This document shows, piece after piece, positions 45,628 to 51,238 of a stretch of DNA of 64,000 bases (positions are counted from its first letter, which is position 1; the number at the start of each line of letters is the position of its first letter). The translations under genes and the position numbers were made by a program. The notes below the pieces were generated by a model. That model saw only the letters and a program-made list of their open reading frames with translations, searched no databases and had not been told where the DNA came from. The DNA is from Actinomycetes bacterium. Its GTDB lineage: Bacteria; Actinomycetota; Acidimicrobiia; Acidimicrobiales; RAAP-2. The stretch covers positions 16,707-80,706 of the forward strand of contig JAKATH010000001.1 of NCBI GenBank assembly GCA_021828055.1. Direction: 5' to 3'.

Positions 45628-46410
45628 ATGGCCACCCGCCGCGTCCCCGTCCACGAATGGGTGAGCTTCGAGGACCCCGACGAGGACCGGACCTGGGTCT
45701 TCGACGTGACCTTCCTCACCAGCAGCTGGACCTGCATCTACGGCCGGGGCTGCCAGGGGGTCCTCACCGAGCCCGCTCCCGAGCTGGTCCACGGGTGCTG
45801 CTCCTATGGGGCGCACTTCGTCGACGACGACGACGTCCGCCGCATCGAGCGGGCGGCCGCGACGCTGAGCGACAGCCAGTGGCAGTACCGCGGCCGTGCC
45901 CTGAAGAAGGGGATCACCCGCGAGACCAGGCGGGGCGAGACCGTCACCCGGCTCGTCGACGGCGCCTGCATCTTCCTCAACCGCCCGGGCTTCCCCACCG
46001 GTCCGGGGTGCGCGCTCCACCAGGCAGCGCTCGCCTTGGGGCGGCGCCCGCTCGACCTCAAGCCGGAGGTGTGCTGGCAGCTGCCGCTCCGCAGGGAGGA
46101 CCAGGTCGCCGACGACGGCCACGTCACCTCGACGGTCGGGCAGTGGGACAGGCGCCACTGGGGAGCGGGGGGGCAGGAGTTCGCGTGGTGGTGCACCGAG
46201 TCCGACCAGGCGTTCGTCGGCACCCGGCCCGTGTACGAGGAGATGGCCGACGAGCTCGCCGAGATGACGGGCGGGAAGGTGCACCGGTTGCTCCGCGCCT
46301 ACCTCGAGGACCGGACCCAGCGAGTGCGGGAGCCGCTCCCCCACCCCGCGGTCCGTCGCCGCGAACGTCACGAGCAGGGACGCTCCCTCCCGGGGAGCGA
46401 CGCCGGCTGA
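45628..46410 (+). CDS. conserved cysteine-rich hypothetical protein (possible Fe-S/Zn cysteine-cluster protein)
   Basis: High-GC3 ORF with Cys motifs SSWTCIYGRGCQGV, HGCCSYGAHF, DGACIFLNRPGF, PGCALH and EVCWQLP. Start taken at Met23 of the track ORF. Confidence 0.7.
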   Translation: MATRRVPVHEWVSFEDPDEDRTWVFDVTFLTSSWTCIYGRGCQGVLTEPAPELVHGCCSYGAHFVDDDDVRRIERAAATLSDSQWQYRGRALKKGITRETRRGETVTRLVDGACIFLNRPGFPTGPGCALHQAALALGRRPLDLKPEVCWQLPLRREDQVADDGHVTSTVGQWDRRHWGAGGQEFAWWCTESDQAFVGTRPVYEEMADELAEMTGGKVHRLLRAYLEDRTQRVREPLPHPAVRRRERHEQGRSLPGSDAG

Positions 46411-46431
46411 CGCACCAGCCCTGCGCGCCGG

Positions 46432-46701
46432 TCAGTCGTCGAGCGGGTCGCGCTCCCAGTCGTCGTGCGAGGGCGCGAGCGACCCGAGGATCCGGTCGTA
46501 CTGGTCCTCTTCGGCGAGGCACCACGACGCGTGCACATCCTCGGGCTCGGCTCCGCACTCCGGGCACCGCTCCCCAGCGGTGGTGACTGAACGCTTGAGG
46601 CTTCGCGCTTCTTCGAAGCGCCGATGGCGTCCCTTCTTCACGACCACTCCCTTGCTGCCCGTCCGCGCTCGAGACGCTTGGTCGACCGAGCCTGGGGCCA
46701 T
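46432..46701 (-). CDS. small basic hypothetical protein with CPxC..H..C zinc-knuckle-like motif
   Basis: MAPGSVDQ...KKGRHRRFEEARSLKR...ERCPECGAEPEDVHASWC...; 89 aa from an internal Met of the track ORF. Confidence 0.5.
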   Translation of the reverse strand: MAPGSVDQASRARTGSKGVVVKKGRHRRFEEARSLKRSVTTAGERCPECGAEPEDVHASWCLAEEDQYDRILGSLAPSHDDWERDPLDD

Positions 46702-46840
46702 GTAGACGACCTGGCCGACACCTGCCCATCTCAATCGGCGAGCGCCCGGCCGCGCTGGAAGTGTAGTCGTTGGAACGCGCCCCACCTCGTCGCCTCCGGG
46801 GTGTGTGCGCCGGCTCCACCCCTCGTATGCTGGCCTGACG

Positions 46841-47053
46841 ATGCATTTCGACACTCACGCGATGCTCGCGCGGTTCCGTGAACGGGCCAAGGCGGTCAAA
46901 GACCGCGGGCTCCCTCCGGTGGAGGGGCCGGAGCGCCAGAGGTTCAGGGAGCAGGCGCAGCTCGACTACATGGACTTCGCAATGATCGGCGACGCAGAGG
47001 CGACGCTCGAGGACGGGATCCTGACCCTGCGGATCGACCTCCGCCCCCGCTGA
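46841..47053 (+). CDS. small hypothetical protein (70 aa)
   Basis: MHFDTHAMLARFRERAKAVKDRGLPPVEG... with coding-like third-position bias. TATGCT lies 9 nt before the ATG. Confidence 0.45.
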   Translation: MHFDTHAMLARFRERAKAVKDRGLPPVEGPERQRFREQAQLDYMDFAMIGDAEATLEDGILTLRIDLRPR

Positions 47054-47055
47054 CC

Positions 47056-47601
47056 TCAGCCGCCGTAGCTCATGCGGGTGTCTTCCATCCGCAGGAGCGG
47101 AGGCAGGTCGCCTTCGGGGCCGCCGACCGCGACGACCTCGCCCACGAACAGCTCGTGGCTGCCGAGCAGAAGGCGGTGCCGCAGCGAGCAGTCGAGCCAG
47201 GCGGCCGCGCGCGCGAGCACGGGCGCTCCCGTCACGTGCACGTCGACCGGCTCCCCCGCCATCGATACGACGGCGCCGCCGTTCTCCCTCTCGATCTCGT
47301 CTTCTCGGACGGGCTTGACGAAGCGCCGGACCACCGCACGCTCCTCCCGTGCGAGCAGGCTCAGCGAGAAGCCCCCGCCCGCAGCCACGAGCCCGTGGGT
47401 CACGGAGGCAACGTCGACCGCCACCCCGACGAGCTTGGGCTCGACCGCGACCTGGACCGCGAGGTTGGCGGTCATCAGGTTCACCCTGCCGCCCGCCGCG
47501 CTCCCCACCACGTAGAGGCCGCTCGGCATCGCCCACAGGACCCGCCGACGGAGACGGTCCTCGACACTGTCGGGCACGCCGCCTCCGGCACGTCCCGGCA
47601 T
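47056..47601 (-). CDS. flavin reductase-like FMN-binding protein
   Basis: LWAMPSGLYVVGSAAGGRVNLMTANLAVQVAVEPKLVGVAV...GSHELFVGEVV. The ATG shares 1 nt with the upstream stop (TGATG). Confidence 0.8.
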   Translation of the reverse strand: MPGRAGGGVPDSVEDRLRRRVLWAMPSGLYVVGSAAGGRVNLMTANLAVQVAVEPKLVGVAVDVASVTHGLVAAGGGFSLSLLAREERAVVRRFVKPVREDEIERENGGAVVSMAGEPVDVHVTGAPVLARAAAWLDCSLRHRLLLGSHELFVGEVVAVGGPEGDLPPLLRMEDTRMSYGG

Positions 47602-48116
47602 CAGAGGATCCCTGTTGTGACCGGCAGCACGGTCGTCGTCGTGGTGGGCGGCGTCGTCCCCGTGAGGATCCGGACCCGGCGCAGCACGTCGCCGAAGAGG
47701 GCCGCCGCCCGAGCGCGGTCGCGTCCGAACGCGCCGAACAGCCGGGTGCCCGCAGCCGGCGACCGGTAGCACGCCTCCGCGGCGTCGTACTCGAGCCCGT
47801 AGGCGTGCGCGAGGAGCTGGGTGACCAACGTGTCGGGTGAGGGCAGGTCGTCGTTGAATGTCTGCGCGCTGGTCGCCATCGCCGCGCACACGGTGTGCGC
47901 GGCATCGATGCCCTTGCCCGCGGCCAGCGCCTTGCGCACGTCCTGCCCGTCCTGCTCGAGCGTGCCGATGTCCTGGCCCAGGCTCGTGCTGCTCACCCAG
48001 CTCCGTAGGCGCTGCGCCGGAGTGCCCGACACGCCGTGACCCAGGGAGACGAAGGCCACGACCCCGACCGCGGCGACCACGAACGCCCCCAGCCCGAGCC
48101 ACCACCTGCTGATCAC
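47601..48116 (-). CDS. membrane-anchored hypothetical protein
   Basis: N-terminal TM helix ISRWWLGLGAFVVAAVGVVAFV and a Thr/Pro-rich C-terminus. GTG 48116 is in GTGA overlap with the micro-ORF stop. Confidence 0.7.
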   Translation of the reverse strand: MISRWWLGLGAFVVAAVGVVAFVSLGHGVSGTPAQRLRSWVSSTSLGQDIGTLEQDGQDVRKALAAGKGIDAAHTVCAAMATSAQTFNDDLPSPDTLVTQLLAHAYGLEYDAAEACYRSPAAGTRLFGAFGRDRARAAALFGDVLRRVRILTGTTPPTTTTTVLPVTTGIL

Positions 48117-48193
48117 CCCTCCAGGTCCGCCTCGGTCGCCGGCGCCACCTGAGGCGCCCTGGCCGTTTCGGTCACCGGCGCCACCTGGGTCAT
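48113..48193 (-). CDS. candidate 26-codon bridging micro-ORF (MTQVAPVTETARAPQVAPATEADLEG)
   Basis: ATG 48193 is in ATGA overlap with the tyrS stop, and its TGA is in GTGA overlap with the next gene's start. GC3-rich, and contains an in-frame 36-bp-period duplication. Confidence 0.35.
   Translation of the reverse strand: MTQVAPVTETARAPQVAPATEADLEG
48131..48190. repeat. imperfect direct repeat, 36-bp period
   Basis: CTCGGTCGCCGGCGCCACCTGAGG vs TTCGGTCACCGGCGCCACCTGGGT (20/24), inside the tyrS-downstream micro-ORF. Confidence 0.8.
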
Positions 48194-49458
48194 TCGACGA
48201 CGAGCAGGTGGTACTCGCGCCTCCCCCGCCGCAGCACGAGGTAGCGGTCGTGCAGCAGGTCGCCCGGGCCGAGCGACCGGTCGAGGTCGTCCACGCGCCG
48301 GTTGTTCACGTATGCGCCGCCCTGCGCGATGGTGCGGCGCGCCTCGCCCCTCGAGGCGACGAGCCCCGACGACGTCAGGGCGTCGACCAGGCCCACCTCG
48401 CCGCTCAGGAACGCCGACCGCGCGACGCTGCTCGACGGCGCCTCGCCGACGACGTCGAGCAGCGTCCGCTCGTCGAGCGCGGCGATCTCCTCGCCGAACA
48501 AGGCGCGCGACGCGCGCTCCGCCTGCTCGGCCTCCGCCTCGCCGTGCACGAGGACGGTCACCTCGCGCGCGAGCGCGCGCTGCGCGGCGCGGCGCTCGGG
48601 ACGCTCTGCGGTCTCCGTGTCGAGCGCCTCGACCTGGTCGTGCTCCAAGAACGTGAAGTACCGGAGGTACGTGCCGACGGCAGCGTCCTCGGTCTTGAAG
48701 AGGAACTGGTAGAAGTGGAACGGGCTCGTGAGCGCCGGGTCGAGCCACACGGCTCCCGAGGAAGTCTTGCCGAACTTCGTCCCGTCGGGCTTCAGGACGA
48801 GCGGCGTCGTCATCCCGTGCGCCGTCTTCCCGGACAGCTTGCGGATCAGCTCGACGCCCATCGTGATGTTGCCCCACTGGTCGCTCCCGCCGACCTGCAG
48901 CTCGCAGCCGTAGTCCTCGTGGAGCCGGAGGAAGTCGTAGGCCTGGAGGAGCATGTAGCTGAACTCGGTGTACGAGATCCCCTGATCGGCACGCTCGAAA
49001 CGCGAACGGACGGCTTCCTTGGCCACCATCTGGTTCACGGTGAAGTGCTTGCCGACGTCGCGGAGGAAGTCGATGACGGGCAGCCGGGAGAGCCACGCGC
49101 TGTTGTCGAGCACGAGCCCGTCCTCGAGGTCGATGAAGCGTGCGAGCTGCGGTCGGATGCCCTCGAGGTGGGCTGCGAGCTGCTCGACGGAGAGGAGCGG
49201 CCGCTCGTCGGTCTTGCCTCCCGGGTCGCCGATCATGCCGGTGCCCCCGCCGCAGAGCGCGATGGGCCGGTGGCCGGCGAGCTGGAAGCGGCGGAGCGTC
49301 GCGAGCTGGAGCAGGCTCCCGATGTGAAGACTGGCGTTCGAGGGGTCGAATCCGACGTAGAAGGTCATCCGGTCGTCATCGAGGCGGGACCAGAGGCGCT
49401 CGTCGGTCACCTGGTGCACCACCTTGCGGAAACGGAGGTCCTCCGACAGGGTCGGCAT
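48190..49458 (-). CDS. tyrS: tyrosine--tRNA ligase
   Basis: FDPSNASLHIGSL (HIGH), KFGKTS (KMSKS) and a C-terminal S4 domain. Confidence 0.96.
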   Translation of the reverse strand: MPTLSEDLRFRKVVHQVTDERLWSRLDDDRMTFYVGFDPSNASLHIGSLLQLATLRRFQLAGHRPIALCGGGTGMIGDPGGKTDERPLLSVEQLAAHLEGIRPQLARFIDLEDGLVLDNSAWLSRLPVIDFLRDVGKHFTVNQMVAKEAVRSRFERADQGISYTEFSYMLLQAYDFLRLHEDYGCELQVGGSDQWGNITMGVELIRKLSGKTAHGMTTPLVLKPDGTKFGKTSSGAVWLDPALTSPFHFYQFLFKTEDAAVGTYLRYFTFLEHDQVEALDTETAERPERRAAQRALAREVTVLVHGEAEAEQAERASRALFGEEIAALDERTLLDVVGEAPSSSVARSAFLSGEVGLVDALTSSGLVASRGEARRTIAQGGAYVNNRRVDDLDRSLGPGDLLHDRYLVLRRGRREYHLLVVE

Positions 49459-49528
49459 CGGACCAGCCTGCCATATCCCGCGTTCTGCCCATTCGCAGCG
49501 AACGCGCGCCCTCTCGTCGCCCGGCGCC

Positions 49529-51238
49529 CTACGGCGCCCCCGTGGGCTGCAGGCCGGCGCGCCTCAACGCGTCGCCGACGGCCGCGTGCACCCGGCCGTG
49601 CACGGCCGCGTTCTCCTGCCGGGACGGCACCCGCGCCCGGACCACCGTGACGCCCTCGCCGCGGCGCGCCGCCCGCACCGCCTCTTGCAGCTCGCAGGGC
49701 GTGCCCACGTCCGCGGTCCGATGACCGAGCCCCGCCGCCGCGCGCACCACGTCGGGCGCCTGGGGCGTCGCGAACAGCCGTTCGAACCTGGCCCTGTCGA
49801 CGGCGTCCACCTGCTCCAGGAACTCGAAGATGCCGCCGCCGCCGTTGTCGACCACCACGATGGTGCAGGGCGTGCTCTGCGCGCCGCACGGCGCGACGAG
49901 CGATGACAGGTCGTGGAAGAACGCGAGGTCCCCCACCAGCGCGACCACCGGGCCCACCGCCGCGGCCGCCGCGCCCAGGGCGGTCGAGCACACGCCGTCG
50001 ATGCCGTTCGCGCCGCGGTTGGCGAGCACCTTCGGGGGCGCGGGGCGCGGCCGCGCGAACCACTCGAGGTCGCGCACCGGCATCGACGAGGAGACCACGA
50101 CGGTCGTGCCCCCGGGCACCTCGCCGAAGAGCCGGCGCGCGACGAGCGGCTCGCTGAGGCAGTCCCCGCCGAGGGCGGCGTCGACGGCCTCCTGCGCGAC
50201 GCGCTCGGCGTCCTGCCACCCTTCGAGCCAGCCGGGGGACGGCGCAGGGCGCGGGACGCAGAGCGCGGCGGCGAGCCACGCCGCGGGGTCGGCGCGGTGG
50301 ACGACGGCGGCGCGGCGGTCCGCGTCGTCCCACCGCCACCACGGATCGACCGCGACCGCCGCCGCCTCGGACAGGTAGGCCGGGACCGCCTTCGACGCCC
50401 ACGACGCGCCCAGCCGGACGACCGCGTCGGGTCGGAGTGCCGCTGGCGCGTGGCGTGCGATCGCGTCGGCCGCCGCGACGACGTTGGGGTGCGGGACCCG
50501 GCACCCCGAACGGGGGTCGGCGAGCACCGGCCAACCGAGCTGCTCGGCGAGCGCGAGCACGCCTGCGGGCGGACCGCACCCCGCCCCGGCGAGGAGGACC
50601 CCGTTGGCGGCCGGCCAGGTCCACCGCTCGGCGGCGCCGGCGTGGACCACGACGCGGTGCGCGGCCTCACCGGCGGGCCGTCCCTCGGGCAGCGGCCCGG
50701 GCGCGCAGGCGAGCGGCTCGCGGAAGGCCAGGTTCAGGTGGACGGGGCCCGGGCCCAGGGGGCCCGAGATCGCTTCGACCGCCGCACGCGCCCCCAGCGA
50801 CCGCCACGACCACGCGGCCTCCTCGGCAGGGACGCCGGGGTCCGCTCCCCATCGGAGCGCGCCAGGGTAGATGCCCCGCTGGTCGATGGTCTGGGGCGCG
50901 CCGACGCCGTGCAGCTCCGGCGGGCGGTCAGCGGTGCAGACGATCAGCGGGACTCGCCCGTGGTGGGCCTCGACGACCGCGGGGTGGAGCTCTGCCGCGG
51001 CGGTCCCGCTCGTCACGGAGACGACGACCGGGCGCCCGGTCGCGCCCGCGAGCCCGAGGGCGAAGAACCCCGCGCCGCGCTCGTCCAGCCGGACATGCAG
51101 GCGGATCGCCTGGTTCCCGGCGAGCGCGAGGGCGAGCGGGGTCGAGCGCGAGCCGGGGCAGACCACGGCGTCGCGCACGCCGGCACGCACCCACTCGTCG
51201 ACGAGGGTCGCCGCGAAGGTGGCCTGGACTACGCTCAT
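49529..51238 (-). CDS. menD: 2-succinyl-5-enolpyruvyl-6-hydroxy-3-cyclohexene-1-carboxylate synthase
   Basis: ThDP enzyme with N-terminal TFAATLVDEWVRAGVRDAVVCPGSRSTPLALA and the GDLAFFHD ThDP motif region. Confidence 0.92.
   Translation of the reverse strand: MSVVQATFAATLVDEWVRAGVRDAVVCPGSRSTPLALALAGNQAIRLHVRLDERGAGFFALGLAGATGRPVVVSVTSGTAAAELHPAVVEAHHGRVPLIVCTADRPPELHGVGAPQTIDQRGIYPGALRWGADPGVPAEEAAWSWRSLGARAAVEAISGPLGPGPVHLNLAFREPLACAPGPLPEGRPAGEAAHRVVVHAGAAERWTWPAANGVLLAGAGCGPPAGVLALAEQLGWPVLADPRSGCRVPHPNVVAAADAIARHAPAALRPDAVVRLGASWASKAVPAYLSEAAAVAVDPWWRWDDADRRAAVVHRADPAAWLAAALCVPRPAPSPGWLEGWQDAERVAQEAVDAALGGDCLSEPLVARRLFGEVPGGTTVVVSSSMPVRDLEWFARPRPAPPKVLANRGANGIDGVCSTALGAAAAAVGPVVALVGDLAFFHDLSSLVAPCGAQSTPCTIVVVDNGGGGIFEFLEQVDAVDRARFERLFATPQAPDVVRAAAGLGHRTADVGTPCELQEAVRAARRGEGVTVVRARVPSRQENAAVHGRVHAAVGDALRRAGLQPTGAP

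Follow-up and report, generated by a model that had tools for sequence, protein, structure and literature searches.

In classic termination-reinitiation, two protein genes are joined directly through their stop and start codons, and the ribosome that terminates on the first serves the start of the second (Huber et al., 2019, PMC6728339; PMC10666635). The coupling drops steeply with distance, and in Haloferax and E. coli reporters it was nearly abolished at about 20–38 nt (PMC10666635; Huber et al., 2019, PMC6728339). [quoted passage not shown] In M. tuberculosis, NUGA is the commonest overlap, with more than half of ORFs initiated at NUGA/URRUG overlaps without a canonical Shine-Dalgarno (SD) sequence (bioRxiv 10.1101/2022.06.01.494293). 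Short uORFs with NUGA overlaps deliver ribosomes to SD-less genes in mycobacteria; they lie at the 5′ ends of transcripts, where they are initiated de novo and are often leaderless (bioRxiv 10.1101/2022.06.01.494293; Shell et al., 2015, PMC4633059, as cited in the 2025 review).

Here we describe a 26-codon micro-ORF that fills the spacer between tyrS, the gene for tyrosyl-tRNA synthetase, and a downstream gene that we call ds, in the genome of an uncultured actinobacterium (a MAG of 2.64 Mb, 84% complete and 71% G+C). The window, that is, the whole stretch of DNA analyzed, comprises 64,000 nt. We use the term relay ORF for an ORF that runs from a start overlapping the stop of one gene to a stop overlapping the start of the next. 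The ORFs at this locus are co-directional, and the overlap motifs at both ends of the micro-ORF are those of classic termination-reinitiation, in which likewise a terminating ribosome serves the downstream start. Unlike the classic case, two junctions would act in series through a non-conserved mini-ORF, and the relay spans 73 nt, a gap of a size that left almost no direct reinitiation in reporters (PMC10666635). Like the mycobacterial NUGA uORFs, the micro-ORF is small, has no apparent role other than to bring a ribosome through a 4-nt overlap, and precedes a gene lacking a canonical SD sequence; in contrast to them, it would be operon-internal and itself fed by reinitiation. The resemblance to MIRUs extends to a short intercistronic element, often tandemly repeated, with a small ORF that overlaps the neighboring start or stop by 4 nt, in Actinobacteria, whose insertion or expansion would leave translational coupling unbroken. 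However, the 36-nt unit of the relay occurs at one junction only, unlike a dispersed repeat, and relatives of the window carry unrelated spacers with unrelated local repeats of 27, 15, 15, 18, and 12 nt. Because the unit is confined to a single locus and the repeats of the relatives are unrelated, the relay is better regarded as a locally generated spacer than as a member of a repeat family; a shared family is also unlikely since the spacers of the genus relatives cannot be aligned with one another. No new mechanism is called for, and among known systems the micro-ORF fits best under termination-reinitiation coupling, as a relay ORF of local origin.

Results

Organization of the locus

On the minus strand, a menD-like gene for a TPP enzyme is followed by tyrS, the micro-ORF, ds, and a flavin reductase-like gene. 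The ATGA, GTGA, and TGATG junctions follow one another in series (Table 1), so the whole stretch from tyrS to the flavin reductase gene is a chain of stop-start overlaps. An earlier note, made on the sequence of the window, had drawn attention to the overlaps of the micro-ORF with the tyrS stop and with the ds start, to the 73-nt spacer, to the preponderance of G or C at third codon positions, and to an in-frame duplication with a period of 36 nt. Both overlaps lie at the coordinates it gave, the spacer length is correct, and 92% of the third positions are G or C. The duplication is real: two 25-nt cores (48127–48151 and 48163–48187) are 88% identical, and identity over the full 36 nt is 75%. 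That the spacer is "exactly filled" by the ORF is true if the ATG at the tyrS stop is taken as the start; the claim hinges on that choice, as the frame itself stays open far upstream, to 49096, a total of 327 codons. Long open frames of this kind are usual in G+C-rich DNA.

Table 1. Features of the tyrS–ds–flavin reductase locus (positions in the window).
Feature	Position	Strand	Basis or remarks
tyrS, tyrosyl-tRNA synthetase gene, 422 aa	48190..49458	-	stop TGA 48190-48192; Pfam tRNA-synt_1b, E 1.6e-79, plus SYY C-terminal/S4 domain
ATGA, tyrS stop overlapping the relay-ORF start ATG 48191-48193	48190..48193	-	sequence; the final codon of tyrS, GAA, is a rare one
Candidate relay micro-ORF MTQVAPVTETARAPQVAPATEADLEG, 26 codons plus stop TGA 48113-48115	48113..48193	-	open frame, both overlaps
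Repeat unit 1, codons 3-14, QVAPVTETARAP	48152..48187	-	repeat search, period 36
Repeat unit 2, codons 15-26, QVAPATEADLEG	48116..48151	-	repeat search; the one unit present in G012 and G010 aligns here
GTGA, relay-ORF stop overlapping the ds start GTG 48114-48116	48113..48116	-	sequence
ds, downstream gene, 171-aa protein with N-terminal membrane helix, helical bundle and Thr-rich tail	47601..48116	-	
TGATG, ds stop overlapping the flavin reductase start by 1 nt	47599..47603	-	sequence
Flavin reductase-like gene, 181 aa, third in the putatively coupled chain	47056..47601	-	Pfam Flavin_Reduct, E 1.9e-27
Inverted repeat, 3′ arm, perfect 10 nt, ds codons 3-5	48101..48110	-	pairs with 48203-48212
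Inverted repeat, 5′ arm, perfect 10 nt, last codons of tyrS	48203..48212	-	pairs with 48101-48110

The spacer between the menD-like gene and tyrS (49459–49528) measures 70 nt, gives no match to the T-box or any other Rfam family, and leaves the tyrS ATG without an obvious SD sequence ahead of it. A consensus scan of positions 46900–49700 returned no promoter-like or terminator-like sites. The Ds protein has no family match in Pfam or NCBIfam and no significant fold match in the PDB; its AlphaFold model has a pLDDT of 75.6 and a pTM of 0.70. Homologs of ds are present in 371 of 401 sampled genomes of the family, nearly always between tyrS and the flavin reductase gene. They share a membrane anchor or lipoprotein signal (the protein is often a lipoprotein in other genera), a helical bundle in which two Cys are invariant, and a tail rich in Thr. 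The flavin reductase-like protein has weak NCBIfam matches to reductases of the HpaC/StyB type, all of them below cut-off.

We considered three other ways in which ds could be reached. A ds start further upstream in its own frame is not available in the window or in eight other genus genomes (9/15), where, reading upstream, a stop comes before any in-frame ATG, GTG, or TTG. Read-through of the tyrS stop would, in the window, lead into another stop after five codons. A programmed −1 frameshift at G GGG UGA, which would fuse the relay peptide to Ds, finds its slippery context in the window copy only and leaves the conserved start of the relay unexplained.

Relay-like patterns within one genome

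The earlier note had taken the coupling of the micro-ORF at both of its ends as an argument for translation. We compiled a crude list of 1,772 gene ends from the source genome and searched it for relay-like patterns, defined as a short open frame that follows TGA and terminates at an [AG]TGA whose frame is that of the next coding ORF. TGA stops preceded by C (CTGA), which form no canonical start, provided the control class. The pattern followed 5.6% of the ends with A before TGA and 8.4% of those with G, vs. 5.8% in the CTGA control, and thus no genome-wide excess of relay ORFs was found over that control. Since relay-like patterns arise at a chance rate in a single genome, double coupling is by itself no evidence, and the argument from the window sequence is a weak one; the micro-ORF becomes significant only through comparison with relatives. 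These rates, together with the 327 open codons, are what speak for a functionless open frame that arose by chance in G+C-rich non-coding DNA. We hold such an origin to be very improbable, as the frame is kept in relatives through at least six to seven indels, the purine that forms the start is kept as well, and relay ORFs have arisen repeatedly and independently.

The same crude survey counted 266 directly overlapping stop-start pairs and 78 relay-like candidates among the 1,772 gene ends. Of 356 crude gene ends with a TAG or TAA stop, 242 have G as the preceding base; antisense ORFs that slipped through the composition filter (CTAC on the sense strand) may account for this as an artefact.

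Conservation of the frame in the genus

Orthologs of tyrS were found in 37 of 41 relatives. A first scan of metagenomes found nothing, and a second one, run with alignment, gave one new junction at the level of the genus, so that the genus set holds 16 tyrS–ds junctions from 15 genomes and one metagenome contig. As the earlier note had proposed, we looked in these relatives for conservation of the ORF and for indels that break its frame. An ORF runs from A/GTGA at the tyrS stop to an xTGA at the ds start in all 16 junctions, with the frame and both overlaps intact. Its length is 8 codons in six junctions, 11 in two, 14 in four, and 25, 26, 31, and 48 codons in the others. The corresponding spacers measure 19, 28, 37, 70, 73, 88, and 139 nt, all of which are 1 mod 3. 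The start codon of ds, always followed by A, is GTG in 14 cases, ATG in one, and TTG in one; the TGA at the ds start is not independent evidence, because it is forced by the conserved Met-Ile/Thr N-terminus of the protein.

Whatever the tree, seven distinct spacer lengths require at least six changes; by Fitch parsimony, the tyrS tree needs seven. Every one of these changes is a multiple of 3, which would happen with a probability of (1/3)^6–7, or about 5e-4 to 1.4e-3, if the spacer were indifferent to frame; no frame-breaking indel was found. As the relatives are kin, counts of genomes overstate their independence, and the proper units are events, namely the six to seven or so length changes, about six codon changes, and the separate origins described below. 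Taken together, the junctions indicate that the overlap and the frame of the relay ORF are kept by selection among the genus relatives. The comparative data thus lend support to the earlier note's idea that the micro-ORF relays ribosomes; that it is translated, and that expression of ds depends on it, we infer from the sequences.

Four of the length changes in the genus are in-frame tandem repeats, found in the spacers of four genomes with periods of 36, 27, 15, and 15 nt. In the closest relatives of the window, G012 and G010 (TyrRS 93–94% identical), the 37-nt spacer equals that of the window minus one 36-nt unit. Because they carry a single unit, the duplication is specific to the window lineage, and it is likely, from this alignment, to be a later in-frame expansion of the relay. 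A search for the unit elsewhere did not place it in a dispersed family: it occurs at the tyrS–ds junction only, and its 20-nt core, with up to two mismatches allowed, matches just the two copies in the 2.64-Mb assembly (84% complete).

The start-forming base at the tyrS stop

The frame could be maintained even if the start at the tyrS stop were of no use to ds. It may be a relic that captures ribosomes, with selection asking only that they stop at or before ds and with ds initiated independently. Such damage control would likewise hold the spacer at 1 mod 3, and the direct overlap from which the start would be left over is the ancestral state, judging from most members of the family. What separates it from a start that is used is the fate of the base that forms the start. 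Ten of the 16 genus junctions have A immediately ahead of the tyrS TGA, which makes an ATG, and the other six have G, which makes a GTG; C and T never occur there. The last codon of tyrS has changed at least six times (GAG, GAA, GGA, CGA, and CGG are found), with its third base always A or G. The A-ending codons among these are rare, with genome-wide shares of 9% (CGA), 9% (GGA), and 11% (GAA) in their codon families.

We compared this position with 112 columns of the tyrS alignment that hold a fourfold-degenerate codon in each of the 14 near-complete sequences. There, the third base is C in 50%, G in 43%, T in 3.7%, and A in 3.2%. Only two of the 112 columns are free of C and T, and none has more than five A. 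Synonymous sites are saturated at the divergence of the genus, and a neutral relic start would therefore have decayed. Mutation pressure of this kind should also have erased a start that was a nuisance, and yet A was kept in 10 of 16 junctions and C or T never appeared over at least six codon changes. Moreover, fusion in frame, which gives long N-terminal extensions of Ds, is tolerated in other genera and absent in this one. From these comparisons, the start-forming base appears to be under selection, which speaks for a start in use rather than for a tolerated remnant, and we consider damage control around a relic start unlikely.

Peptide, RNA structure, and SD sequences

A high proportion of G and C at third positions, as in the window copy, would be expected if the ORF encoded a functional small protein or a regulatory leader peptide, and the spacer might otherwise act as a cis-regulatory RNA. 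The peptide fails the test of conservation, since neither its length, which varies six-fold (8–48 codons), nor its sequence is kept, and the sequences are unrelated between subclades of the genus. The codon usage is not that of a real protein either. The pooled G+C of the relay ORFs at the three codon positions (GC1/2/3) is 0.75/0.78/0.85, the real proteins of the source genome have a low GC2, and the relay of the relative G006 has a GC3 of 0.46. The relay ORFs also lack Tyr codons and a Pfam match. As for a cis-regulatory RNA, curated families such as the T-box gave no match in Rfam at E ≤ 1 in positions 46000–50000, and spacers from different subclades do not align. A role for the peptide or for the spacer RNA in its own right is thus highly improbable.

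Nor did we find a stable conserved RNA structure, the fold of the whole region having a z of only −1.7 in the window. The micro-ORF is, however, enclosed by the perfect inverted repeat between the 3′ end of tyrS and the 5′ end of ds, and the MFE fold pairs both regions in a longer helix. The 3′ end of tyrS might thus hide the ds start, passing ribosomes might open the helix, and ds might then be initiated de novo, an arrangement that could also accompany a relay. In the window, the duplex reaches −38.5 kcal/mol, with a z of −2.8 vs. shuffled sequences. Against this, the helix is not conserved: 13 of the 15 genus members give z values from −1.8 to +0.8, and it is strong only in the window and about two or three relatives. 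Melting of the structure would also leave the frame lock and the conserved start base unexplained. The 10-nt helix may add coupling of this sort locally, but it cannot explain the comparative pattern, and as the explanation of the locus we regard it as quite unlikely.

A well-placed SD core is absent ahead of ds in 15 of the 16 genus junctions. We give this little weight, because few starts in the source genome have such a core at all: by a rough count, cores stood 4–10 nt ahead of about 18% of well-defined starts, vs. 11.5% of control positions inside genes. These frequencies suggest that SD-independent or coupled initiation dominates in the source organism.

The wider family and the second junction

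To place the genus in its family, we read about 50 further tyrS–ds junctions. Most commonly, tyrS and ds overlap there directly by 4 nt, the A/GTGA at the tyrS stop supplying the ds start codon. In some other genera, ds carries a long in-frame N-terminal extension beginning MTD..., which was never found in this genus. Relay ORFs between tyrS and ds occur independently in five further lineages. They have 15 codons in G022, 33 in G054, 13 in each member of a clade of three (G202, G268, and G334), and four in each member of another (G271, G400, and G041). In G098 (locus L054), from another genus, two 4-codon ORFs are chained just past the tyrS stop (GTGACCAGCGGATGACCGGCGGATGAAGG), the product of a duplicated 12-nt stretch with the ATGA in it.

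Among the junctions read, every spacer of at least 19 nt is bridged by a relay ORF. Those without one are short, 2–10 nt or perhaps about 16 nt, as in G232 and G178 (10 nt), in the metagenome contig L071 (a TAA stop and 7 nt), and in G056, which has a TAG stop and an ambiguous ds start.

The junction between ds and the flavin reductase gene, which in the window is the direct TGATG, holds relay ORFs in five genus members (loci L037, L038, L041, L039, and L044 of G001, G015, G005, G011, and G004); in ascending order, the five lengths are 4, 6, 15, 15, and 23 codons. The two of 15 codons and the one of 23 begin at a TTGA, and the one of four codons is reached by a TGATG. The 23-codon ORF consists in part of an in-frame 18-nt repeat in triplicate, encoding RRLCAT three times. 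Overall, relay ORFs have originated at least six times at the first junction and three times at the second.

Discussion

We propose that the 26 codons are translated as a relay frame, that the encoded peptide has no function of its own, and that the frame keeps termination-reinitiation coupling across a 73-nt spacer. On the comparative sequence evidence, we put the probability of this reading at about 0.7. Ribosomes that terminate tyrS at its UGA would reinitiate at the AUG within the same AUGA, translate the spacer, and terminate at a second UGA, which forms a GUGA with the GUG of ds. From that GUG they would start again, and translation of the flavin reductase gene would follow by way of the UGAUG junction. 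In this way, the relay would turn one impossible jump of 73 nt into two restarts at zero distance.

The prevalence of the direct overlap in the family and the existence of genera with an in-frame extension of ds (MTD...) suggest how the relay came about. An indel in the ancestor of the genus likely shifted ds out of register with the old overlapping start codon, which, together with the spacer, was left to become the relay. Because the genus has kept in register an ORF that is free of any conserved sequence, and because related lineages have reinvented the relay, the coupling of these genes itself appears to be under selection. A relay ORF would be an easy evolutionary fix once an overlap breaks. 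More tentatively, the putative operon of tyrS, ds, and the flavin reductase gene might be translationally chained as a whole, any widened overlap being "repaired" by a frame-locked relay, with in-frame duplications that may tune the supply of ribosomes downstream in the manner of a VNTR. We raise this broader scheme as a possibility and regard it as doubtful.

If this broader scheme holds, spacers that are locked in frame and not conserved in sequence would be a general comparative signature of translated ORFs that look non-coding in uncultured bacteria. The tyrS–ds junction is a natural experiment on whether reinitiation coupling needs an exact overlap of stop and start, a question usually put to reporters. 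Finally, for annotation, some of the "intergenic spacers" of high-G+C genomes may be translated, and conservation of frame without conservation of sequence can reveal them.
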